DNA of 64,000 bases from Polyangiales bacterium (GTDB lineage: Bacteria; Myxococcota_A; Polyangia; Polyangiales; Polyangiaceae), in the NCBI GenBank assembly GCA_038231275.1, contig JBBRLQ010000025.1:1-64000 (forward strand), given 5' to 3'. The notes beneath the pieces are model-generated. The model saw nothing but the letters and a program-made list of their open reading frames with translations, did not search any database and had not been told where the DNA came from. Made by a program: the position numbers and the translations under genes. Positions 2,333-64,000 of the stretch are shown here, piece by piece; position 1 is the stretch's first letter; every line of letters starts with the position of its first letter.

Positions 2333-3426
2333 TGCGCGCCGCCTTTCGCGCCGTAGGGCACCGGCTTCGCGATGTACGCGCTCGGGAGCTCGCCGGTGAG
2401 CGATTCGAGCCAGGCCACGATGGACGAGACCTCGGCGTCCGAGAGCTCGAGGCCAAGCTGGTGCTTGCCCATCATGCGAACTGCGTCGGGGAGCGACTCG
2501 ACCGACCCGTCGTGGAAGTACGGCGCCGTCTTCGCGATGTTGCGGAGGGTGGGCACCTTGAACATCATCGCGTCCTCTTCGGCGCCCGTGACCTTGGCGC
2601 GCCCGCGGTCGTTCTGGTTCGGCCACGGCTCGACGGCGCCGACGCGCTCGAACATCGAGCCTCCGAGGTAAGGACCCGTATGGCAGACCATGCACCCCAC
2701 GTTGAGAAACGTCTTGAGCCCTTCCCGCTCCGCCGCCGTCAGCGCGCTCTTGTCGCCGCGCAGGAACGTGTCCCAACGTCCGGGCGTCAAGAGGCCTCGC
2801 TCGAAGGCGCCGATGGCCTTGCTCGTGTTGTCGAAGGTCACCGAGTCCGCCACGTCGGGGAAAGCTTCACGGAAGGCCGCCTGGTACTCGGGGACCGATT
2901 TCAGGAACGCCACGACCTGCTTGGCGTCCGTCATCGCCATCTCGGCCGGGTTCAGGATCGGGCCCTTGGCTTGCTCCTCCACTGTGGGGGCGCGGCCGTC
3001 CCAGAACTGCGCGAAAAAGCCAGCGGCGTTGTAGACGGTCGGCGCGTTGCGCTCTCCGGTTTGGTTCTTGTGGCCTCTCGAGGTCTTCTGGTGGTCGACG
3101 CCGTACGACGGGAGATCGTGGCAACTGTTGCAGGACAGGTCGGCGTCCTTCGAGAGGCGAACGTCGTAAAAGAGGCGGCGTCCGAGATCGACCTTCGCGA
3201 CCGTCGACGGGTTGGTGCTCGCCTGCGTGTCGGCGATCGGCTGGAAGCGGCGGAGGAGGCGAGGGTTGATCTCGGCCTCCGCGGGCGCGGCGGCTGCGAG
3301 CGGCGCAGGCGCGGGTACAGGTGCGGTCGGGGCCGGCGCCTTGTCCTTGGGGTCGGAGCACGCACCCACCCCGACGAGTGCGGTCATGGCAGCGAGGCTC
3401 ATTGCGGTCCAGACGCGGCGATTCAA
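2329..3426 (-). CDS. ccpA: Di-heme cytochrome c peroxidase (CcpA/MauG family), lipoprotein
   Basis: CNSCH and CMVCH heme motifs, RNAPTVYN, QFWDGRA, FKVPTLRNI..TAPYFHDG; TTG at 3426 follows a GAGGGAG RBS (start uncertain). Confidence 0.9.
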   Translation of the reverse strand: MNRRVWTAMSLAAMTALVGVGACSDPKDKAPAPTAPVPAPAPLAAAAPAEAEINPRLLRRFQPIADTQASTNPSTVAKVDLGRRLFYDVRLSKDADLSCNSCHDLPSYGVDHQKTSRGHKNQTGERNAPTVYNAAGFFAQFWDGRAPTVEEQAKGPILNPAEMAMTDAKQVVAFLKSVPEYQAAFREAFPDVADSVTFDNTSKAIGAFERGLLTPGRWDTFLRGDKSALTAAEREGLKTFLNVGCMVCHTGPYLGGSMFERVGAVEPWPNQNDRGRAKVTGAEEDAMMFKVPTLRNIAKTAPYFHDGSVESLPDAVRMMGKHQLGLELSDAEVSSIVAWLESLTGELPSAYIAKPVPYGAKGGAQ

Positions 3427-3542
3427 TGTGCTCTCCCTCTCGTTCGGCGACGTGGCGACGTCTGATGAACGGTCGCGCGCCGCCAAAGTTGAAGTGCACC
3501 TTCAGTCCCGCCCCTTGGACGCCGTTCTAGCGCTTGACGAGC

Positions 3543-50250: not shown

Positions 50251-50514
50251 TCATGACGAACCGTATTCTCGCGCCTCGTACAGGCGTTGGAGACCGAAGC
50301 GGTCGAATGCCTCCCGCGCCGAGATGTCGCTGGCCGAGCTCGCCGGATCCGCCCAGAGGCGCTTGCCGTCCGTGAAGTAACGCAGCGTCGATCGCCCCGC
50401 GATCGACTGGATCTCCGGCGCAGGCACCTCGACCTGCATGTCCGCGTTCGACAACGCTTCGGGCAGCGCGGCCGAGCCGAACGCATGGATGATCATCCAG
50501 AGGGGAGAACTCAT
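50251..50514 (-). CDS. Putative immunity protein for the PAAR effector
   Basis: 87-aa ORF starting 10 nt after the effector stop on the same strand. Confidence 0.5.
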   Translation of the reverse strand: MSSPLWMIIHAFGSAALPEALSNADMQVEVPAPEIQSIAGRSTLRYFTDGKRLWADPASSASDISAREAFDRFGLQRLYEAREYGSS

Positions 50515-50523
50515 GACGTGGGG

Positions 50524-52962
50524 TCACCTGCCATTGTAGGGCATGACGGGCCGTACTTTGATCCCCGCGGCCTCGAAGACTTCGATCGTTGCAGCCCACT
50601 CTTCGGGGCTTCGAGGCCCATAGCGACCAGAACCTCCGTTGATGATCGCTTCGGGTTGTGCGCCAGGTTCGTGGACAAATCGCATTTCCCCGGCGGAAAA
50701 CGCGCCCTGGTCCGGGGGACTCAGGTTGCTGTGGACGACGTTCCCGCGCGGGGTGGTAAACGGAATCCCTTCGCGAGCGATGTTCAGGCCGCCTTGGTCC
50801 ACCGTGTAGAGGTAGACGCCGTTGGGGTCTGCCCGGTTTGTGACCGTGAGATCGCCCTCCGGAACCGGGGACCTCACCACGTCGTCGGGGACGGGGCTGT
50901 CAGGACTGACGCGGAACGCTTGCGACAGCTCCTTGTTCGTGCCCTGTTCGACGAGCGCATCGAGCTCGCCGGGCGGCATGTCGGGATTCGCCTTCGTGAG
51001 GTTCGCCCGCAGCCGCGCGGCCACCGCAGCGCGCCCCTCGGCGGAGAAGAGGGCGACGTCTTCGTTCGGAAGGATCTCGCGGTTCGGCGCGCGCGGCGCG
51101 CCGCCAACGGCCTCTTGCAGCGCGTTCATGCGCGCGGCCAGCTTCGTCGGGGCGGGCGGCGTTGCCTCGGCGGCCGTAATCTCGCTGGCCTTCGGCGCCG
51201 TGGCGGCGCCCTCGCACGTCGCGCAGGCGTTTTCTTTCGCGCCTCCGCCACCGCCAAGAGCGTCCTCTAGCCCCTTCGGCACTTCGGGGAGCTTCGGTCC
51301 GATCTCGCCCTTCCAACCCGGCGGCCGATAAATCTCGTGAACGTACCCCTTGCCGTACACCTCACCGATCGCAAATTCGTCGATCGGAATCCCCTCGGGA
51401 GCCGCATCGTGAGGGAAGCGGATGACGCCCTTCTGCCCGTTGAGGCCGACTCCAGGCTCGCCCCCCAGCTCGATGAGTCGCGCCTTGGGGATCGCGAGGA
51501 CGATGCCGTCACGGTAGAACGGCGTTCCCTCGGCGAACCAGATGTTGTCCGCGTTGACACCTTGCTTGCCGAACGCGCGGCCGGACTTGAGACCCCCCTC
51601 GAGCACACCCGGCAGCGCTTCGTCCGGAATGACCGAATAGGCCATCTCCGGGTTGACCGCCGTCGGATGCCCGTCGGCGTACAGCTGCTCGAACACTGCG
51701 TCCTGATCCGAAGCGCGTCGCACGTTGTTGGCGTTCGCGAGCATCTCTTCGGCGCTTGGCCGCGGAGTAGGCGCCACTTCTCCGGCGACGGGCTCGGGTG
51801 AACCGCCCTCGAGAAGCTTGGGGCCGGTTCCGCCCTCCAGAAGCTTGGGGCCGGTTCCGCCTTCGAGAAGCTTGGGTCCCGTTCCGCCCTCGAGAAGCTT
51901 GGGGCCGGTTCCGCCCTCGAGAAGCCGGGGTCCGCCTGTGCCGACCGGCTCGGTCCCCTTCATGACCCAGACGCCTTCCGAGTTCTGGACCATCTCGATC
52001 GGCTCGTTCACCCGCGCCGCGGGTCCTTCGAGCATCGGCCGTGCTTCGGGCGAGAGCACTTCGACGCCGGGCTTGCCGCCGCCGGTGAACCCTTCGAGAA
52101 GCTTGCCGCCCCCCTCCATGAGCTTGCCGCCTGCCGCACCCGCGACGAGACCGCCGCTCGTATGGAAGAACTGCTCGAAGCGATGGTCGCTGTAGCCCGC
52201 GGCGCTGTCGATCGCGGCGCCGCCTACCCCGCCGAGGTACGAGCCGCCCTTGAAAATTCCGAACCCCGCGCCGAGCTGGAGTGCCCCCTTGAAGAACGCG
52301 CCGAGACCCGTGCCGATGCTGCCCGCCGTCATCCCCGCGGCGACGCCGCCCACGACCACGGTGAGCGCCGCGGCGCCGAGGCCGATCATTCCGAAGATCA
52401 TTCCGACGTCGTGCAGCGCGGTGCCGATGTTGTGGAGCTTGGACGCGAACGTCTCCTCGTAAGGAACGTCGCTCGCGACCTTGGGGCCGTTCAAATACGT
52501 GTACTGCGTCTGCGGCAGGCACTGGCCGGTGCACGTGACCGTGTCCGTGTGACGCGCCGCCGGGAGCTGCCCGATGCCGATGAACTTCGCGCCCTCTTTG
52601 ATCTGGCTGCTGGAGCTGCATCCGGCCGGATCGGTCATTCGCGCGGCCATCTTGTTTTCGATGAAGACGGTCTCCAAACCCTTCTTGATCGCGCCGCAGA
52701 CCGAGCCGCTGACGTGATCTTCGTCGAAGTGCTCGCCGAGTCGCTCGCCGGCCCAGCCGCCCAAATAGAATGCGGACACCGCTCCAGCGCCTACGGCGAC
52801 GGCCGCGAGAATGGTGAGGCTCACCGGCGCGGTGATGATGATGACCGCCGCGATGATGGCCCCGAGGATGAGCCCGCCGACGAGACCCCAGAACGCGCCC
52901 CAGCCGGACGAGTGGCTCCCGACGTTGTCCCCCATGCGCGCGGCGAAGAGGACGTCGCTCAC
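50524..52962 (-). CDS. prePAAR-TMD-PAAR-TMD T6SS effector with C-terminal toxin domain(s)
   Basis: AARMGD prePAAR, hydrophobic hairpin, MAARMTD and PAARHTD, second Gly-rich TM region; adjacent DcrB/Eag gene. Confidence 0.88.
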   Translation of the reverse strand: MSDVLFAARMGDNVGSHSSGWGAFWGLVGGLILGAIIAAVIIITAPVSLTILAAVAVGAGAVSAFYLGGWAGERLGEHFDEDHVSGSVCGAIKKGLETVFIENKMAARMTDPAGCSSSSQIKEGAKFIGIGQLPAARHTDTVTCTGQCLPQTQYTYLNGPKVASDVPYEETFASKLHNIGTALHDVGMIFGMIGLGAAALTVVVGGVAAGMTAGSIGTGLGAFFKGALQLGAGFGIFKGGSYLGGVGGAAIDSAAGYSDHRFEQFFHTSGGLVAGAAGGKLMEGGGKLLEGFTGGGKPGVEVLSPEARPMLEGPAARVNEPIEMVQNSEGVWVMKGTEPVGTGGPRLLEGGTGPKLLEGGTGPKLLEGGTGPKLLEGGTGPKLLEGGSPEPVAGEVAPTPRPSAEEMLANANNVRRASDQDAVFEQLYADGHPTAVNPEMAYSVIPDEALPGVLEGGLKSGRAFGKQGVNADNIWFAEGTPFYRDGIVLAIPKARLIELGGEPGVGLNGQKGVIRFPHDAAPEGIPIDEFAIGEVYGKGYVHEIYRPPGWKGEIGPKLPEVPKGLEDALGGGGGAKENACATCEGAATAPKASEITAAEATPPAPTKLAARMNALQEAVGGAPRAPNREILPNEDVALFSAEGRAAVAARLRANLTKANPDMPPGELDALVEQGTNKELSQAFRVSPDSPVPDDVVRSPVPEGDLTVTNRADPNGVYLYTVDQGGLNIAREGIPFTTPRGNVVHSNLSPPDQGAFSAGEMRFVHEPGAQPEAIINGGSGRYGPRSPEEWAATIEVFEAAGIKVRPVMPYNGR
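51803..51931. repeat. 27-bp coding tandem repeat, 4 full plus 1 partial unit (LLEGGTGPK)
   Basis: Unit CCGCCCTCGAGAAGCTTGGGGCCGGTT at 51803, 51830, 51857, 51884, partial 51911. Confidence 0.95.
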
Positions 52963-53031
52963 GTGGAGCTCCTCTCGCCGAGGACGACGACGCACGCATG
53001 GAGGTGGGAGGGGGCTTGGGTCATTCGTTCT

Positions 53032-53589
53032 TCAGCGGCGACCGCCGCGGTAGCCGGGCATGGGGACGAGGGGCGGCGCGGACGGGTCTTGTGGGGTCTG
53101 ACTGGGTCGCGCGACGCTGGGCGGCGGACCGCCCGACGGCACGGGCGGCGGCGTGTCGAAGCGGACCGTCTTCAGGATCTCGTCGAAGAGCGGCCGCGAC
53201 GAGGCACCGTCCTTCGCGGGCGCCGTGGTCGTGAACGACGTCGCGACGCGGCCGGTCTCGATCGTGCGCTCCACGAACGTCACGGTTTGCTCGAGCTGCC
53301 CCGTGTGACCAATCCAAGTGTACCGGAGAAAAATTGCCGGCTGCCCGCCGAGCTGGGTCTCTTTGCTCTCGAGGAGATCGAAATCCTTCAGGTGCCGTCC
53401 GAGCTGGAGGAGCTGGCGGTCGGCGTGGCTCCGCAACGAATCGGCTTCCCGAATCGCCTCGCGCGTCATCACGAAGTTCGGCGCCGCGTCGCTAGAGGGT
53501 CCGACAGGAGCGGTGTAGGCCACGATGGTTCGGTCGACCCAGTTCGCAGGTGTTTCGAAGAAGGCATCTCGATCTTGGTGACGCGGCAT
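53032..53589 (-). CDS. DcrB/DUF1795 (Eag-type) effector chaperone
   Basis: PANWVDRTI, NFVMTRE, DRQLLQL, LGGQPA; directly upstream of prePAAR effector. Confidence 0.85.
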   Translation of the reverse strand: MPRHQDRDAFFETPANWVDRTIVAYTAPVGPSSDAAPNFVMTREAIREADSLRSHADRQLLQLGRHLKDFDLLESKETQLGGQPAIFLRYTWIGHTGQLEQTVTFVERTIETGRVATSFTTTAPAKDGASSRPLFDEILKTVRFDTPPPVPSGGPPPSVARPSQTPQDPSAPPLVPMPGYRGGRR

Positions 53590-53789
53590 GAAGTGGTCGT
53601 CCTCCTCGGGTTTCCTTGATCCCCCATGGTAGCGAGGGAGGGCAGATCTAGGGACGACGAAAAATCTGCCCGACCTCTAATGGATACGCCGGCCGAGGTG
53701 CGCCGCTCCCCTCCCCGTTCGAGGCGGGCGCGGGTCGACGCGGGCGCGTTCCGTTAAGAGAAGTAATTTTGAGTAGATAGCCGACGATT

Positions 53790-55010
53790 TCAGCGGCCGT
53801 GGATCGTAAAATACGAGAGCGGGCGCGTGTCGTTCGCGGCGTAGGTCACGAAGAGCTCACGCTTGTCGAACGGATAGACGGCGGTGGCGAGCGGTGCGTC
53901 GAAGAGGTCGACGTAGTGCGGCACACCGAGCCCGTACCAACGCGATAGGTCGTAGTGGCTCAGTTGGAACCTCGGAACGAGGATGACGCGCGGCATCAGG
54001 TGGTTCGCGCCGAGCACGGGTTCCCGGAGCTCCACCCACGAGAAGGGCCCCTCGTCGAGGAGCGCCGCGCGCACCGAGAGGAACGGATTTTCGACGACAA
54101 GCGGGCGCGGCGCGAGCTCCACCTCGAACGTCCGGCCGATGCTCTCGACGTCGATTACCGGGAGCCCGCGAATGCGCTCCAGCACGTCGAGAATGTCGGG
54201 GGTCAGCGTCCCCGGAACGAGCGTCTGCGGAGGGACGAACGCCTTCGCGAGGTTGTCGGCGAGGAGCGGCCCCTCCGCGTCGCGAAAATTGCGCGCGAGC
54301 GGGCCGTCGGGCGAGAGGCCGATGGCGTCGATCGCGAGCGGGAGCGGTTCGCCGTTGCGCCGGAAGATGTCGAACGCCTCGACCTGCATCCCACGAAGCC
54401 CGGGGCCGCCGATGTCAGGGCCGCCCGCGAAGAGGATCTCGTCACGGACGATGGCCTGCTCGAGCGCGGCGTGTCCCCAGCGGCGCATCAGGAATACTGC
54501 GTTGTCGTGCAAGAAGGCGGGCGAAGCCGGATCGAGCGCAGGCAGCGGGTCGGCGACCACGTTCGCGTACGCGATGGAGTGGACGAGGCGCCCCGTGAAG
54601 GCTCCGCGCGATCGCGCATCCAGTGAGATCGTGTGCGGCCCTTTGCGGCACCCGGCGCCGAAGCCGGACGCGGCGAGCTCCACGACCCAACCGGCGCGCA
54701 GGGCCTGATCGAGCAGCCGAACGAACGTCCCCGATCGCCGCGCGAGGCCGAGCGCGAGACCGACGTCCGGCGGTCCCGACGGCGCGGCGACGGGCGGGTC
54801 GGCGAGATCCCAGCGGATCGGCCTATAATTTTCGGCAGATCGTGCCTCGGCCGGCCTTCCCTGGGAGTCGATACGGCCGCCCGTGGCGCTGAAGTACTCG
54901 GCGCTGGGGCCGCGTGGGTTGCTGGGCTCGCCTTGTCCGCGTTTCAGCTTCAGCCGGGGGCGGCCTTCGGAATCCGCGATGAGGCGCGGCGGCGTGCGGG
55001 GCGACCCCAT
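53790..55010 (-). CDS. Two-domain hypothetical protein: degenerate zincin-like domain plus immunity-like domain
   Basis: GWVVE..GFGAGC..ISLD..LVHSIAYA..RDEILFAGGPDIG followed by a distinct ~135-aa alpha/beta domain. Confidence 0.55.
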   Translation of the reverse strand: MGSPRTPPRLIADSEGRPRLKLKRGQGEPSNPRGPSAEYFSATGGRIDSQGRPAEARSAENYRPIRWDLADPPVAAPSGPPDVGLALGLARRSGTFVRLLDQALRAGWVVELAASGFGAGCRKGPHTISLDARSRGAFTGRLVHSIAYANVVADPLPALDPASPAFLHDNAVFLMRRWGHAALEQAIVRDEILFAGGPDIGGPGLRGMQVEAFDIFRRNGEPLPLAIDAIGLSPDGPLARNFRDAEGPLLADNLAKAFVPPQTLVPGTLTPDILDVLERIRGLPVIDVESIGRTFEVELAPRPLVVENPFLSVRAALLDEGPFSWVELREPVLGANHLMPRVILVPRFQLSHYDLSRWYGLGVPHYVDLFDAPLATAVYPFDKRELFVTYAANDTRPLSYFTIHGR

Positions 55011-55062
55011 GCGCCGGAGGATAACAGCTGCAGACTCCGAGGGGGGAGGTTACCCTGGCCGC

Positions 55063-55656
55063 GTGAGCGCCGCCGATGACGAGGTCGACACGTCGCAGCA
55101 AGCCGGCGTCGGGCCGCTCAACTACGACGAGCTCCCCGGCCTGGAAGACATCCTGCTCGAGGACAGCCTCGTCCGCGAGATCGTCGAGTCGCCGAGCTCG
55201 CTCCGCTTCGTCCTCGCCGCCGCGCTGAAGCGGGCCCATCCCTTCTACCAGCGCCCGCGCGCCGGCGATCGTCACTGCTACCGCCCCGCGACGCTGACGT
55301 TCCACGGCGCACAAATCGTGTGGTCGAAGAAGACGACGCTCCGCTTCACCGACGCGGCCGCAGCCGTCGATCTCGGCAACATCGACACATTCGTCGCCCC
55401 ACCCGAAGGCGGCTACCACCTCGAAGGGGATTTTGGCGTCGTCGACGTGCGCCGCTCGCGCGCGCCGGTCTTCACGGTCCTCGGCGCGGCACCGGAGGAG
55501 CGCGCATACTTGCGCGAGGCGATCTCGGCGTGGGTCGCCCACCGTCCCCCGACGCTCGAGCGCCCCGCCGGGATGGCCGGTGCCGACGAGGGGCGCGACG
55601 GAGTGGAGCACGGCCACCTCCACCCCCACGGCCACCATCACCACCATCGGCACTGA
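55063..55656 (+). CDS. Hypothetical (immunity-like) protein with His-rich tail
   Basis: LEDSLV..HPFY..CY..LTF..DLGNID..LEGDFG; ends HGHLHPHGHHHHHRH; start uncertain. Confidence 0.6.
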   Translation: MSAADDEVDTSQQAGVGPLNYDELPGLEDILLEDSLVREIVESPSSLRFVLAAALKRAHPFYQRPRAGDRHCYRPATLTFHGAQIVWSKKTTLRFTDAAAAVDLGNIDTFVAPPEGGYHLEGDFGVVDVRRSRAPVFTVLGAAPEERAYLREAISAWVAHRPPTLERPAGMAGADEGRDGVEHGHLHPHGHHHHHRH

Positions 55657-55665
55657 GCCCGAGCG

Positions 55666-56094
55666 ATGACGCGGCACGTCTTCGACGACACGACGCTGGA
55701 GTGCGGCGACGACTTCGTCCTCACGACGATCGTCGCGCAACGCGCGAAAAAGGGCGATTTCGCCCCAAATTTGGTGCTGACACGAGGCCCCCTTCGCGAC
55801 GAGGAGACCCTCGAGACCTACGTCGCCCGCCAGCTCGTGGAGCTGGCCAAGAGCCTGAAGAGCTTCAAGCTGCACGGGCGCACCGAAGTAGAGCTCGCGG
55901 GCCGACCGGCCCGTCGCATCGCGTGCGGATGGCAAGGCACGCAGGGTCACGTCGAGCAACGCATGACGATGGTCGCGATCGACGGGCGCGTCCTCACGTT
56001 CACCGTCACCGTGCCAAAGGCCAAGGCCGACGAGCTCTTTCCGCTGTTCGACGGCATCCTCGCGACCGTCGCCATCGGCGCGATCGCCGGCTGA
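55666..56094 (+). CDS. DcrB/DUF1795-like protein (second copy)
   Basis: PNLVLTR..TLETYVARQLVELAKSL..LAGRPA, similar to 53032..53589. Confidence 0.8.
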   Translation: MTRHVFDDTTLECGDDFVLTTIVAQRAKKGDFAPNLVLTRGPLRDEETLETYVARQLVELAKSLKSFKLHGRTEVELAGRPARRIACGWQGTQGHVEQRMTMVAIDGRVLTFTVTVPKAKADELFPLFDGILATVAIGAIAG

Positions 56095-59126: not shown

Positions 59127-61823
59127 GTGTCCGTCACGTCCAATAACCTCAAGCTGGCGTTCGCCAATGGGAACGAGTCGCTCGACGTGCGGCAGTTCTC
59201 CGTGCACGAGGGGATGAACGAGCTCTTCGAGGTGACGCTCCTCGCGATCTCGGACGACGCGGACGTCGACATCAACGGCATCGTCGGCAAGGGCGCCGCG
59301 TTCAAGCTCGAGACGCCAAACCACCTCGCCGCGCACAGCGTCCGCGTCTGGGCCGGCGTCGTCGCGCAGATGTCGCAGGTCCACTCGGAGCGCGCGCCGG
59401 GCCAGTCGATGTACCAGCTCACGATCGTCCCCGACGTGTGGCGGACGACGCTTCGCAAGAACAACCGCATCTACCAGCACAAAGACACGCCGACGATCGT
59501 GAAGGAGCTGCTCACGGAGTGGCAGATCACACCCGTCGACAAGCTGAAGAACAAATACGCGTGGCACGAGTACGTCGTGCAGTACGGCGAGACCGACTTC
59601 GCGTTCATCTCGCGCCTCCTCGAGGACGCGGGCATCTCGTATTATTTCAGCCACGACAAGACGAGCGGCAAGGGCGCCGACATCACGAAGCTCGTCTTGT
59701 CCGACGAGCCGACGAACAAAGAGAACCTGCGGAGCGGCCCGCTCTCCTACGCCGGGCATCAAACGCCGCGCTTTGGCGCGGACATGGACTTCTGCGCGAC
59801 GGTCACGCTCACGCAGCGCATGAAGCCCGGCAAGCAGACGATCCGCGACTACAACTTCCGCACGCCCCTCCTCAAGTCGTACAAGACGTCGAAGTCCGGC
59901 AAGAAGGACGAGGACAACTACGAGGAGTACCGGTACCAACCCGGCGGCTTCTGGTGGGACACGAAGAAGCCCGAGAAGGACGTCGCGGATCGCGATCACG
60001 CGCCGAACAACGACGAGCCCGGCGAGGGTCAGGCGCTCGCGAAGCGCACGATGGAAGCAGAGCGCCGCCGGCGGCTCCTCGTCGCCTTCCACACGAACGC
60101 GCTCGATCTCGCGCCTGGCAAGATCGTCGGCATCAACCAGGAGTCGGAGCACAAGAACCATCCGCGCAAGGATCTGGCGCCCGACAAGAAGATCCTCCTG
60201 CTCGAGACGAACCTCGAGGGCGAGCACAACGGCGACTGGTCGATGACGTCGACCGGCGTCTTCGCCGACGTCCCGTACCGCCCCGAGCGTAAGACCCCGC
60301 GGCCGAAGGTCTACGGCCTGCAGAGCGCGTTCGTGGTCGGACCCCAGGGGCAAGAGGTCTTCACCGACGAGTACGGCCGCGTCCGCGTGCAGTTCCACTG
60401 GGACCGCGAGGGCAAGTACGACGAGAACAGCTCGTGCTGGGTACGCGTGAGCCACGGCTGGGCGGGCGGCAAATTCGGCATGATGGCGATCCCGCGCGTC
60501 GGCCACGAGGTGCTCGTCGAGTTCTTCGAAGGCGATCCCGATCACCCGGTCATCGCGGGGCGTGTCTACAACGAGACGTCGCCCGTTCCGTGGACACTGC
60601 CCGCCGAAGCGACCAAGAGCGGCTGGCGCACCAACTCGCTGCCGTCGTCGCAGCCCGGCTACAACGAGCTCGTCTTCGAGGACGCGGCGGGCAAGGAAGA
60701 GATCCACTTCCAGGCGCAGAAGACGCTCTCGTCGATCATCAAGAACAACCAGTCGTCGAACATCGGCGGCATGCGCACCGCGGCGATCAAGACCGCCGAC
60801 TCTCTCGACGTCGGCGAGACGATGACGGTGCACGTCGGCGAGAACTACACCGAGGGCATCGGCCAGCACTACACGCTGTCGATCGGCAAGACGACGGGGA
60901 TCGAGATCTCCGATCAGAAGATCGTTCTCTCGACCGGCGACGCCAGCCTTCAGCTCGAGAAGGACAAGATCACCATCCAGGCGAAGGGCAACCTCCACTT
61001 CCACGCCGGGACCGGGATGGAGATCGGCTCCAAGAAGCCGGGCATGGTCATCCTTCAGGGGGGCAAGAACATTCGCGTGAATGACGGCACGGCAGGCCCG
61101 AAGCCGACCGTCGCCACGGTCCCGCAACGCGATCCGCCGAAGCCCGCGACCGGCGGTCCGGACGGCACGCCGCCGGTCATCCCGAGCGGCGGTGGCAAGA
61201 TCGACCCGCCCGGCAAAGTCGACGACGTCAAGGTCGACATGCCCGAGGAGAAGACCAGCGCGGCAAAGCAAGACGAGGCCGCGAAGAAGGGTCCGAAGCC
61301 GCCGCCCGCGGCGCCGGACACATGGGTCAAGGACCACCCCGACGACATCAATGCGGCGCTCAAGGCGCAGCGCGACCTCTTGACCGCGAAACAGACCGAG
61401 CTGAAGACCTGGGACGACCCCGCAAAGGCGAATTTCAAGAAGTACTTCGGCACGACCTCCGACGAGGCGAAAACGAAGATCTCCGACCGCATCGACAAGG
61501 AGCTGGATCTCAACTCCAAAATGACGAAGGACAACTTCCTCCAGGCGGAGAAGCACGAGGACGGGACGTTCGCGTACGTCTACCCCGACGACGCGACGCA
61601 CAAGGTCTACCTCGACAGCGCGTTCGAGAGCGCGCCGCTCACCGGCAAGGACTCGAAGGCCGGCACGCTGGGCCACGAGATGAGCCACTTCAACGACATC
61701 GGCGGCACCAAGGACGTGATCTACGGCATCGGCCCCGCCATCAAGCTCGCGAAGAAGGACCCGACCAAGGCGCTCAATAACGCGGACAGCTTCGAGTACT
61801 ACCTCGAGGGAGCGAAGTGGTGA
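59127..61823 (+). CDS. vgrG: Evolved VgrG (copy 4) with C-terminal M35/aspzincin metalloprotease domain
   Basis: VQYGETDFAFISRLLE, TDEYGRVRVQFHWDR, IPRVGHEV; tip FAYVYP, GTLGHEMSHF, GGTKDVIYG, ALNNADSFEY. Confidence 0.93.
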   Translation: MSVTSNNLKLAFANGNESLDVRQFSVHEGMNELFEVTLLAISDDADVDINGIVGKGAAFKLETPNHLAAHSVRVWAGVVAQMSQVHSERAPGQSMYQLTIVPDVWRTTLRKNNRIYQHKDTPTIVKELLTEWQITPVDKLKNKYAWHEYVVQYGETDFAFISRLLEDAGISYYFSHDKTSGKGADITKLVLSDEPTNKENLRSGPLSYAGHQTPRFGADMDFCATVTLTQRMKPGKQTIRDYNFRTPLLKSYKTSKSGKKDEDNYEEYRYQPGGFWWDTKKPEKDVADRDHAPNNDEPGEGQALAKRTMEAERRRRLLVAFHTNALDLAPGKIVGINQESEHKNHPRKDLAPDKKILLLETNLEGEHNGDWSMTSTGVFADVPYRPERKTPRPKVYGLQSAFVVGPQGQEVFTDEYGRVRVQFHWDREGKYDENSSCWVRVSHGWAGGKFGMMAIPRVGHEVLVEFFEGDPDHPVIAGRVYNETSPVPWTLPAEATKSGWRTNSLPSSQPGYNELVFEDAAGKEEIHFQAQKTLSSIIKNNQSSNIGGMRTAAIKTADSLDVGETMTVHVGENYTEGIGQHYTLSIGKTTGIEISDQKIVLSTGDASLQLEKDKITIQAKGNLHFHAGTGMEIGSKKPGMVILQGGKNIRVNDGTAGPKPTVATVPQRDPPKPATGGPDGTPPVIPSGGGKIDPPGKVDDVKVDMPEEKTSAAKQDEAAKKGPKPPPAAPDTWVKDHPDDINAALKAQRDLLTAKQTELKTWDDPAKANFKKYFGTTSDEAKTKISDRIDKELDLNSKMTKDNFLQAEKHEDGTFAYVYPDDATHKVYLDSAFESAPLTGKDSKAGTLGHEMSHFNDIGGTKDVIYGIGPAIKLAKKDPTKALNNADSFEYYLEGAKW

Positions 61824-62251
61824 GCGACACGCAGCCCAACGTCCACGTCACGCTCTCGCTGCACTCCTCGGAGCAGCAGCTGGTGGCCACGCTCGTCTAC
61901 AAGAACGCCGGGACGAACGTGGCGTTCATCGATCTCATCAACGGGTGCATCAAGGGCGAGCTGAAGAACGACGTGTTCGAGATCGTCGCGCAAGTGGCGG
62001 GCGCACCGGCGAAGGAGCCGATTCGTTACAAGGGGCCGCGCCTGAAGCGTCGCCAGCCGACCCTCCCGGATTTTTTGCGCCTCGAGGCGGGCGCGGCCGC
62101 CGAAGCCAACGTCCGCCTCGACACGGGCTACGCGTTCCCGGCCGGCCGCGGCACGTACAAGATCGTCTACTCGTCTGTCCACCAATTCCCGCACAACGAC
62201 GACTATTGGGAGCTCACGTCGAACGAGCTCACCGTCACGTTTCCGAAGTGA
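61820..62251 (+). CDS. Putative immunity protein resembling an M35 protease propeptide
   Basis: GTGA overlap with vgrG stop; YKNAG..LKNDVFEI..IRYKGPRLKRRQP..DFLRLEAG..VRLDTGYAF..GTYKIVY. Confidence 0.7.
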   Translation: MSDTQPNVHVTLSLHSSEQQLVATLVYKNAGTNVAFIDLINGCIKGELKNDVFEIVAQVAGAPAKEPIRYKGPRLKRRQPTLPDFLRLEAGAAAEANVRLDTGYAFPAGRGTYKIVYSSVHQFPHNDDYWELTSNELTVTFPK

Positions 62252-62277: not shown

Positions 62278-64000
62278 ATGACCGCCACGTCCAACAACCT
62301 GAAGCTCGCGTTCGCCCACGGCGAAGACGCGCTGGACGTGCGTCATTTCTCCATCCACGAAGGGATGAGCGAGCTCTTCGAGGTGAGCGTCCTCGCCATT
62401 TCGGACGACGCGAACATCGACATCGACGATCTCGTCGGCCAAGGCGCCGCGCTGACCATGGTGATGCCGAACTACCAGGCGCTCCACAAGAAGCGCGTCT
62501 GGACCGGCGTAGTGGCGCACGCGTCGCAGGTGCACGCCGAGGAGCACCCCGGCCAGTCGATGTACCACGTGATGATCGTCCCCGACTTCTGGCGGACGAC
62601 GCTCCGGCGCAACAGCCGCATCTACCAGCACAAGGACGTGCCGACGATCGTGAAGGAGATGCTCCTCGAGTGGGGGATCACGCCCGACACGAGCAACCTC
62701 AAGGCGAAGTACCCGCAGCTCGAGTACTGCGTGCAGTACGGCGAGACCGACTTCGCGTTCATCTCGCGCCTGCTCGAAGAGGCGGGCATCACCTACTTCT
62801 TCAAGCACGACGGGACGAGCGGCACCGGCACGAGCATCACGATCCTGATGCTGAGCGACACGCCGACCGACAAGGCGAACGAGCGCGGCGGCGTCCTCGC
62901 CTACGCGGGGCACCAGACGCCGGCGTTCGGGCGCGACAAGGACTTCTGCTCGACGGTGCTGGTCACGCAGCGCATGAAGCCGGGCAAATTCACGGTCCGC
63001 GACTTCAACTTCCGGACGCCGCTCCTCAAGTCGTACCAGACGGTCCCCTCGGGCAAAGCCGACGAGGACAAGTACGAGCAGTACGACTACGTCCCCGGCG
63101 CGTACTGGATCGATACCAAGCGCATCGAGAAGCCGGTGGCCGACGGCGGCACCGGACCGAACAACGACGAGCCGGGCGCAGGCAAAGACTTCGTGCAGCA
63201 CGGCATGGAGGGCGAGCGCCGCCGCCGCCTCCAGGTCGCCTTCAACACGAACGCGACGGATCTGGCGCCCGGCAAGATCATCGGCATCAACCAGGAGTCG
63301 GACTCCAAGGACCATCCGCGCAAGGATCTCGCGCCCGCGAAGAAGATCCTCCTCATCGAGACGACCCTCGAGGGCGAGGCGACCGGCGAGTGGACGATGA
63401 CGTGCAGCGGCGTGTTCGCGGAGTTCCCGTACCGCCCCGAGCGCCGGACACCGAAGCCGCGCATCTACGGCGTGCAGAGCGCGTTCGTCGTCGGCCCCGC
63501 CGGGCAAGAGGTCTACACCGACGAGTACGGCCGCGTCCGCGTTCAGTTCCACTGGGACCGCGAAGGCAAGTACGACGAGAAGAGCTCGTGCTGGATGCGC
63601 GTCAGCCAGGGCTGGGCGGGCGGCAGCTTCGGCATGGTCAACCTGCCGCGCGTCGGTCACGAGGTGATGGTCGAGTTCTTCGAGGGCGATCCCGATCGTC
63701 CGATCGTGACCGGCCGCGCGCACAACGAGACCTCGCCGGTCACGTGGACGCTGCCTGAGCAGCAGACCAAGAGCGGCTGGCGCACCAACACGCTGCCGTC
63801 GTCGGCCAAGCTCGGTTACAACGAGATGGTCTTCGAGGACGCGGCGGCGAACGAGCTCATCCACTTCCAAGCGGAGAGCCTGCTGTCGTACGTCGTGAAG
63901 GACAGCGAGTCGGCGAGCATCGGCAAGGGCCGCTCAGTGACCATCGGCGGTCCCGACAAGAACGGTCAGCCGGTCGGCCTCGATACGCTCGACGTCGGCA
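62278..64000 (+). CDS. vgrG: VgrG (copy 5), close paralog of copy 4, runs off the window
   Basis: ATG 62278 MTATSNNLKLAFAHGEDALDVRHF; VQYGETDFAFISRLLEE; TDEYGRVRVQFHWDR; no stop before window end so absent from the ORF track. Confidence 0.93.
   Translation, partial: MTATSNNLKLAFAHGEDALDVRHFSIHEGMSELFEVSVLAISDDANIDIDDLVGQGAALTMVMPNYQALHKKRVWTGVVAHASQVHAEEHPGQSMYHVMIVPDFWRTTLRRNSRIYQHKDVPTIVKEMLLEWGITPDTSNLKAKYPQLEYCVQYGETDFAFISRLLEEAGITYFFKHDGTSGTGTSITILMLSDTPTDKANERGGVLAYAGHQTPAFGRDKDFCSTVLVTQRMKPGKFTVRDFNFRTPLLKSYQTVPSGKADEDKYEQYDYVPGAYWIDTKRIEKPVADGGTGPNNDEPGAGKDFVQHGMEGERRRRLQVAFNTNATDLAPGKIIGINQESDSKDHPRKDLAPAKKILLIETTLEGEATGEWTMTCSGVFAEFPYRPERRTPKPRIYGVQSAFVVGPAGQEVYTDEYGRVRVQFHWDREGKYDEKSSCWMRVSQGWAGGSFGMVNLPRVGHEVMVEFFEGDPDRPIVTGRAHNETSPVTWTLPEQQTKSGWRTNTLPSSAKLGYNEMVFEDAAANELIHFQAESLLSYVVKDSESASIGKGRSVTIGGPDKNGQPVGLDTLDVG

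Follow-up and report, generated by a model that had tools for sequence, protein, structure and literature searches.

How a polymorphic toxin comes by its antidote is a puzzle, given that the producer of a new toxin would be killed by it as long as no antidote exists, and the origin of new immunity genes is still an open question. The gene pair examined in this study, which raises that question, lies in a 64,000-nucleotide stretch of DNA from a Polyangiales bacterium (GenBank assembly GCA_038231275.1, contig JBBRLQ010000025.1, positions 1 to 64,000 of the forward strand; hereafter the window) and consists of a specialised VgrG spike protein ending in an M35 zinc protease domain and a small gene directly behind it, here called the partner. 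A first-pass annotation of this DNA had proposed that a zymogen was split, with the catalytic domain weaponised on the spike and the propeptide reused as a cytoplasmic immunity protein. Sequence comparison and predicted fold show true homology between the partner and the M35 prodomain, to a degree far beyond chance, and we consider it probable that the pair is a protease toxin of a type VI secretion system (T6SS) and a prodomain-derived immunity protein that would block its active site.

The nature of the tip is clear from profile searches. By residue, VgrG comprises Phage_GPD (27-365), OB (414-481), gp5 C (498-598) and Aspzincin_M35 (765-893), the last with E = 7.5e-29 and 101 bits in Pfam against a curated cut-off of 30 (PF14521); a second profile search with PF14521 on the tip gave E = 1.4e-29. 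The best PDB matches of the tip were AsaP1 (2x3a, residues 208-338, E = 3.8e-25) and LysN (1g12, E = 4e-22). Also, the aspzincin signature that had been called intact is indeed read as HEMSH, GTKDVIYG and NADS, and among 49 aligned M35 tips HEMSH is invariant, while the Asp of GTxDxxYG is kept in all 49 and the Tyr in 47. The definition of M35 includes GTXDXXYG with Asp as the third zinc ligand (PMC12924839), and the tip has HEXXH, GTXDXXYG with the Asp ligand and a profile score above the cut-off. Of the 49 tips, 48 retain D887 and 47 retain E890, and the motif position of these two residues relative to LysN suggests that they form the acidic lysine (S1′) pocket; a change of Glu157 in LysN altered the P1′ specificity (PMC11985622). 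Cys residues number 0-1 in 42 of the 49 tips of this clade, as against 2-5 in all 15 enzymes that carry their prodomain in cis. AsaP1 and LysN/GfMEP (1g12) are each one secreted chain with a signal peptide and a cis prodomain, whereas that layout is absent here: VgrG domains precede the protease, and the two parts are separate genes in reversed order, the catalytic one borne on VgrG.

As the first-pass annotation had pointed out, the VgrG gene runs into a 143-residue open reading frame through a GTGA overlap, the stop codon TGA (61821-61823) sharing two letters with the start codon GTG (61820-61822). Because of the spacing of GAGGGAG, 7 nucleotides upstream of 61820, this start is preferred over an alternative GTG at 61817. 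The arrangement suggests translational coupling of the two genes, and the same overlap with the same gene pair is present in the closest relative (L001), the tip of which is 77% identical. The GC content at third codon positions of the partner, 0.91, is similar to that of VgrG. The earlier statement that the partner has no signal peptide also stands, in that no hydrophobic leader was found by a hydropathy heuristic (not SignalP). Searched against Pfam and NCBIfam, the partner matched no family. The features of the locus are collected in the table below.

Table. Features of the VgrG-partner locus (window positions, forward numbering)
Feature	Position	Strand	Remarks
Specialised VgrG, 898 residues	59127..61823	+	gp27-like hub, then OB fold, gp5 C-terminal spike and Pro/Lys-rich linker; protease at the C-terminus
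Aspzincin (M35, LysN/AsaP1-like) catalytic domain	61419..61805	+	PF14521; without preceding prodomain
HEMSH zinc-binding/catalytic motif (H850, E851, H854)	61674..61688	+	read from sequence
GTxDxxYG motif, read GTKDVIYG (residues 860-867)	61704..61727	+	third zinc ligand D863; Y866
NADSFE segment (NADS = residues 885-888)	61779..61796	+	read from sequence
Ribosome-binding site and GTGA stop/start overlap	61806..61823	+	read from sequence
Partner: stand-alone M35-prodomain homologue, predicted immunity protein, 143 residues	61820..62251	+	Ig-like beta-sandwich; no export leader
Predicted inhibitory loop, partner residues 69-80	62024..62059	+	predicted interface; K76 at 62045-62047
Next VgrG of the tandem array	62278..64000, continues to contig position 65067	+	Peptidase_M91 C-terminus; context, outside the pair

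The kinship of the partner with the M35 prodomain emerged from deep searches. As a single sequence against the PDB, the partner matched AsaP1 over residues 75-126 at an E value of only 0.16, and a BurrH repeat match in the same search was discarded as spurious, summed from repeat noise. A word-indexed homologue search returned 2 proteins only; an exhaustive search with the single sequence through 1.84 billion proteins yielded 142, including the N-terminal parts of two full M35 pro-enzymes (P0045, E = 1.2e-10; P0129, E = 8.9e-5). A profile (A1) was then made of the partner and the 116 of these matches that were picked as stand-alone proteins of 126-192 residues, 117 rows in total, and it matched AsaP1 residues 26-149 in the PDB with E = 1.2e-18, the next match having E = 0.72. 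The alignment covers the whole domain, and the shared motifs include a Lys-Arg loop. Another profile (A3), made of 8 partners verified in their genomic loci, matched the same residues with E = 2.7e-12. The AlphaFold model of the partner is a beta-sandwich with a predicted local distance difference test score (pLDDT) of 95.5, and its top fold among 48,161 chains was again AsaP1 (Z = 14.6, root-mean-square deviation 1.8 Å, 119 residues aligned); in Foldseek, the check that the first-pass annotation had suggested against M35 pro-enzymes, AsaP1 chains (E = 1e-6) were the sole matches at E ≤ 0.001. The resemblance to M35 prodomains, originally put forward from a residue pattern, is hence borne out, and AsaP1 of Aeromonas salmonicida (2x3a/2x3b/2x3c) is the best PDB match of both the tip and the partner family. 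A eukaryotic LysN-type protein (P0188) was also matched by the family profile at its N-terminus (E = 4e-11), and no match to fungal deuterolysin (PF02102) was found among the 117 family members at E ≤ 0.01.

A common immunoglobulin (Ig)-like sandwich, such as that of Ipi/BsuPI or ApaG, might be reached by convergence rather than by descent from a prodomain, and the second fold match of the partner model is indeed Ipi (3isy, Z = 9.3), an intracellular inhibitor of proteinases from Bacillus subtilis, the nearest named ESM Atlas cluster being BsuPI at 0.89, below the lead threshold. Convergence is nonetheless contradicted by the sequence-level match over the whole domain with its common Lys-Arg loop, by the pro-enzymes that single-sequence searches matched directly, and by the gap between the two Z scores; we consider it highly improbable and effectively refuted by the pro-enzyme matches and the match of profile A1 to AsaP1. 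In a Pfam scan, none of the 117 family members matched BsuPI/Ipi (PF12690) at E ≤ 0.01. The names offered by the ESM Atlas (“copper chaperone” and BsuPI) were rejected as automatic or below the lead threshold. As a separate observation, four large fn3-containing proteins (P0073, P0115, P0121, and P0125) have a prodomain-like C-terminus, and one of them keeps the Lys-Arg loop.

A survey of the co-occurrence of the two genes had been suggested by the first-pass annotation. Our locus set comprised 13 genome loci, the best 80 of 302 metagenome matches, and 4 phylum matches; its 99 M35 matches were reduced to 80 at 90% identity. Left out of the tally were four duplicate own-genome loci, one locus with a frameshifted protease (L011, though a partner lies downstream), and 15 rows with less than 300 nucleotides downstream, 3 of which were frameshifted cis forms. 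Where the downstream DNA was readable, the partner domain followed 55 of the 57 M35 genes without a cis prodomain, as compared with 1 of 8 cis pro-enzymes. The prodomain-less relatives of the tip are mostly PAAR or VgrG fusions, and by carrier (50 of the 80 loci scanned, plus L001 and the window) the pairing was found in 23/23 PAAR fusions, 7/7 informative VgrG fusions, and 1/1 core protein of an extracellular contractile injection system. In the protease tree, which like the domain tree described below is a quick, unrooted IQ-TREE reconstruction with long branches, most prodomain-less M35 domains form one group apart from the classical pro-enzymes, and a smaller lineage (L099 and L100) falls outside it.

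Pairs were found well beyond this genome, for example with a VgrG of Cronobacter sakazakii plasmid pESA3 (L111; partner WP_133053117.1, E = 2e-15) and an Escherichia coli VgrG (L112; partner E = 2.5e-11), and the partner family, for which neither Pfam nor NCBIfam has a model, extends over Acidobacteria, myxobacteria-like genomes, Neisseriaceae, and enterobacteria, the carriers being mostly environmental bacteria. The system is patchy, since the tip was matched in only 5 of the 301 genomes of a phylum sample and 9 of the 400 of a gammaproteobacterial sample. In L032 and L078, additional copies in tandem lie behind the partner. The window's own genome has two M35 matches and two prodomain-profile matches, each pair adjoining and the prodomain matches being separate genes. 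The second of these pairs (C3:510255-511511, L015) has neither VgrG nor PAAR and stands behind a DcrB-like gene; it likely encodes a cargo effector, and its partner is 34% identical to that of the window.

How the partner would act on the protease is indicated by structure prediction, another check that had been suggested. The complex of tip and partner predicted with zinc scored 0.93, the best control 0.35, and 116 of 157 solved complexes attained the mark set for this score, as did 2 of 215 mismatched pairs; the runs agreed in at least 97% of the contacts, with a partner pLDDT of at least 92. Because the AsaP1 pro-enzyme with its prodomain is a solved structure, the score may reflect memory, and the pass is a sign of likeness rather than of binding. 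In the model, partner residues 69-80 run along the protease cleft, where they would form an added strand, and K76 is predicted to contact H850, E851, and D887 in the manner of a substrate mimic, so that the predicted pose blocks the active site. The propeptide of AsaP1 reportedly inhibits that enzyme, presumably through a lysine equivalent to K76 of the partner. Position 76 is Lys in 106 of the 117 family rows, and of 59 pairs of toxin and partner, counted without de-duplication, 54 retain both the pocket Asp and the partner Lys and 4 have neither, while the remaining pair has Arg in place of Lys together with a changed pocket Glu. The pairwise identities of toxins and partners correlate with a rho of 0.55, which shared descent alone would likewise give. 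In the VgrGs at L111:1571-5157 and L112:1598-4924, the pocket Asp is replaced by Tyr and the partner has no Lys, and their specificity may differ.

The surroundings of the pair are those of a T6SS effector: a toxin domain at the C-terminus of VgrG, an adjoining small gene, and a complete T6SS in the genome. The core cluster lies at 79-97 kb of the same contig (TssA/B/C/F/G/K/L/M, Hcp, and a ClpV-like ATPase; the scan covered 14 proteins, TssE and TssJ not being among them). The M35 VgrG and its partner are the first of three tandem VgrG cassettes with differing tips, namely Peptidase_M91 in the second and an unnamed domain in the third, each followed by its own small gene, and then comes a DUF2169 adaptor; the part behind the M35 pair extends from 62278 in the window to contig position 69196. 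The unnamed tip contains HTHP, which by eye we take to be JAB-like, and the second cassette of L001 has a different HEXXH tip. Elsewhere in the window (50524-56094) there are a PAAR-tipped protein of 823 residues with a repeat linker and an unnamed C-terminal domain, a small open reading frame downstream of it (50251-50514), and two DcrB-family genes (53032-53589 and 55666-56094).

Given these neighbours, the VgrG with its LysN-like zinc protease domain would likely be injected as a toxin by the T6SS of this genome, and the protease would cut before lysines in many proteins of the target cell. In the producer, the partner would keep the protease silent before firing, and it would also neutralise copies arriving from sister cells; non-kin would have no partner. 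The immunity reading is supported by a 501-residue protein (P0106), in which a domain like T6IC12 (the immunity protein discussed below), of the kind found downstream of T6EC12-like toxins, alternates twice with the prodomain-like domain; P0106 may thus be a poly-immunity protein directed at M35 toxins. P0072 and P0139 each contain the prodomain-like domain as a tandem double.

Prodomains can act as folding chaperones, and the partner might mainly be a folding chaperone in trans or a loading adaptor on the spike, even travelling with the protease, with kin protection secondary or absent. How well these peptidases are expressed and how active they are depends in part on the pro-peptide sequence, and peptidyl-Lys metalloendopeptidase in its mature form ended up in inclusion bodies when produced in E. 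coli (PMC11985622); the tight GTGA coupling and the lack of an exported form of the window partner would also suit such a role. We consider it unlikely, however, in view of the export leaders of 38 out of 54 partners, which would place them outside the compartment of spike loading, of the extra tandem copies and the four-domain P0106, which suit stockpiled immunity, and of the position of the partner in a slot that is filled by other small genes behind other tips. Alternatively, the protease may be aimed at eukaryotes or serve the digestion of prey, the partner being a self-protection latch of the producer and not kin immunity. Fish, insects, and plants are attacked by secreted M35 enzymes acting as virulence factors (PMC12924839), the M35 effector T6EC12 also kills yeast (bioRxiv 10.64898/2026.09.28.754971), and the window partner has only its cytoplasmic form. 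This alternative is improbable in our view: the VgrG array is polymorphic with a small cognate gene behind each tip, exported forms in most relatives suit defence against an incoming toxin, and the carriers, as noted above, are mostly environmental.

The leaders just mentioned modify the claim that the immunity protein is cytoplasmic. By the hydropathy heuristic, the 38 leaders are in frame, and 14 of them have a loose lipobox. In 35 of the 38 leader-bearing partners an ATG lies 2-18 codons ahead of the first strand, where the frequency of Met in the domain would lead one to expect about 18%. The partner in the window is one of the 16 without a leader. Most relatives, therefore, likely make an exported and a cytoplasmic form of the protein from two starts of one gene, whereas the window copy would be cytoplasmic only; the earlier description fits the window but not the family. 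Independently of this, several T6EC12-like M35 genes occur in one genome family (L125-L133), and the genes downstream of these toxins, although belonging to an unrelated immunity family, have a hydrophobic leader and an internal Met resembling the two-start pattern of the partner.

A more comprehensive reading, which we hold tentatively and at slightly less than an even chance, is that the partners form a widespread T6SS immunity family that was freed from the M35 propeptide at least two times, co-evolves with the toxin via the substrate-mimicking lysine, uses two starts to provide one cytoplasmic inhibitor and one periplasmic one, often a lipoprotein, since the protease is a danger in either compartment, and is stockpiled as tandem copies and poly-immunity proteins. 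Several points weigh against the immunity interpretation or narrow its basis. The M35 loci were fetched by their likeness to the tip; furthermore, since the loci are kin, belonging mostly to one clade and one smaller lineage, the 55 of 57 amount to about two independent events and not to 55. No partner was found at L089 and L094, the two exceptions in that tally, and no partner match was obtained at three of the 8 loci from a plasmid collection (L113, a Burkholderia locus within a T6SS cluster, L147, and L148). The four pairs lacking both pocket Asp and partner Lys (L007, L074, L111, and L112) come from one enterobacterial lineage. The counts of leaders and internal starts rest on the hydropathy heuristic, and L001 is outside the 54. 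Finally, a chaperone role and inhibition are inseparable in these comparisons.

By what route the prodomain became a separate gene is a further matter. Descent of the immunity domain from the prodomain family holds by either route, and this part of the proposed split zymogen is upheld; a literal split is only one of the two routes. In the other, a duplicated stand-alone prodomain gene already stood beside a secreted pro-enzyme, and VgrG or PAAR then replaced the signal peptide and prodomain, inheriting the downstream inhibitor. Indeed, a stand-alone prodomain copy adjoins 12 of 36 cis pro-enzyme open reading frames (not de-duplicated, several with short flanks), and 3 of the 36 have an extra prodomain copy at the C-terminus. 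An asaP1 orthologue of Aeromonas caviae (L114) has such a copy downstream (2919-3446, E = 8e-15), and an M35 pro-enzyme of Pseudoalteromonas (L146) is likewise followed by a paralogue (2608-3063); these unannotated or hypothetical proteins are candidates for dedicated inhibitors. Because stand-alone copies already adjoin pro-enzymes, duplication followed by capture is the simpler explanation of both gene order and leaders: it directly yields, with no rearrangement needed, a protease followed by its partner and supplies the export leaders, whereas after a plain split the prodomain would still lie upstream.

The domain tree bears on this choice from both sides. The partners of L098-L100 fall on the pro-enzyme side, in favour of capture, but a set supported at 98 unites 53 partners, 3 cis rows, and the second copy of the own genome, and it is separate both from the classical prodomains and from the stand-alone copies adjoining these; several of the adjoining copies arose recently by duplication of the neighbour itself (L079 at 97 and L139 at 99). 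P0045 and P0129 each run leader, domain, protease; both of their domains group with the T6SS clade, nested on long branches, and these proteins may be re-fusions into pro-enzymes. The tree, a quick and unrooted one of a 140-residue domain, neither demonstrates nor excludes duplication followed by capture, nor does it decide between that route and a split, and we put the odds of the two at about even.

M35 toxins of the T6SS are already known. T6EC12 is an Aspzincin_M35 cargo effector of the T6SS, toxic to E. coli in the cytoplasm and the periplasm and to yeast, and its neighbour T6IC12 is protective and predicted to occlude the cleft (bioRxiv 10.64898/2026.09.28.754971). T6EC12 shares Aspzincin_M35 with the VgrG tip described here but is distant from it, has its own N-terminal domain, and is predicted to be Hcp-borne. 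The proteins at L129 and L133, which the tip profile matches only at E = 5e-4 to 1e-3, fit the T6EC12 numbering exactly (H301, D312, and E341) and probably correspond to it on that ground. Their downstream gene gave no BLAST alignment with the partner at E ≤ 100 and no match to profile A1; by sequence, the matching loci carry an immunity family unrelated to the partner, and the idea that the partner is a T6IC12-like immunity protein was rejected on this basis. In the main text of the T6EC12 preprint (10.64898/2026.09.28.754971), the terms “propeptide,” “prodomain,” “pro-domain,” and “zymogen” do not occur.

VgrG2b/PA0261, Tpe1/Tpi1, and the “M35” VgrG- or PAAR-borne effectors (PMC10673891) resemble the present pair in having an HEXXH metallopeptidase on a VgrG tip and a small downstream immunity gene, and “M35_like” PAAR toxins are also known (PMC8651086). 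VgrG2b, however, is a gluzincin with E983 as the third zinc ligand and toxicity in the periplasm only (PMC6899460), while the corresponding ligand here is D863. Its structure (6H56) was not matched by the tip profile at E ≤ 10, and assignment of the tip to the Tpe/Tpi (VgrG2b-PA0261) family was rejected, the tip being an aspzincin and not a gluzincin. No immunity is listed for Tox-MPTase1-5 in the available part of Zhang 2012 (PMC3482391). Among inhibitors, Ipi/BsuPI is encoded by a small gene beside its enzyme and has the sandwich fold in common with the partner. A small inhibitor gene adjoining that of its enzyme is also the arrangement of emfourin/protealysin and Inh/serralysin. Emfourin, Inh, and Ipi are not known to be homologues of the propeptides of their enzymes, and these enzymes are not known to be fused to spikes. 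In the literature searched, which mostly leaves out subscription journals, we found no work that connects protease propeptides with immunity proteins of the T6SS.

In conclusion, the toxin and the antidote of this pair would each trace to one half of a secreted pro-enzyme whose structure is solved, and the pair would have come ready-made. If this is true, the partner would be a natural tight inhibitor of LysN-type proteases, and as a small stand-alone protein it could aid the production of the LysN-type enzymes used in proteomics, which are poorly expressed. The partner family would also be a clean test case for immunity provided by two starts in two compartments, and the locus would allow the birth of an immunity gene to be traced back to the gene from which the toxin itself descends.

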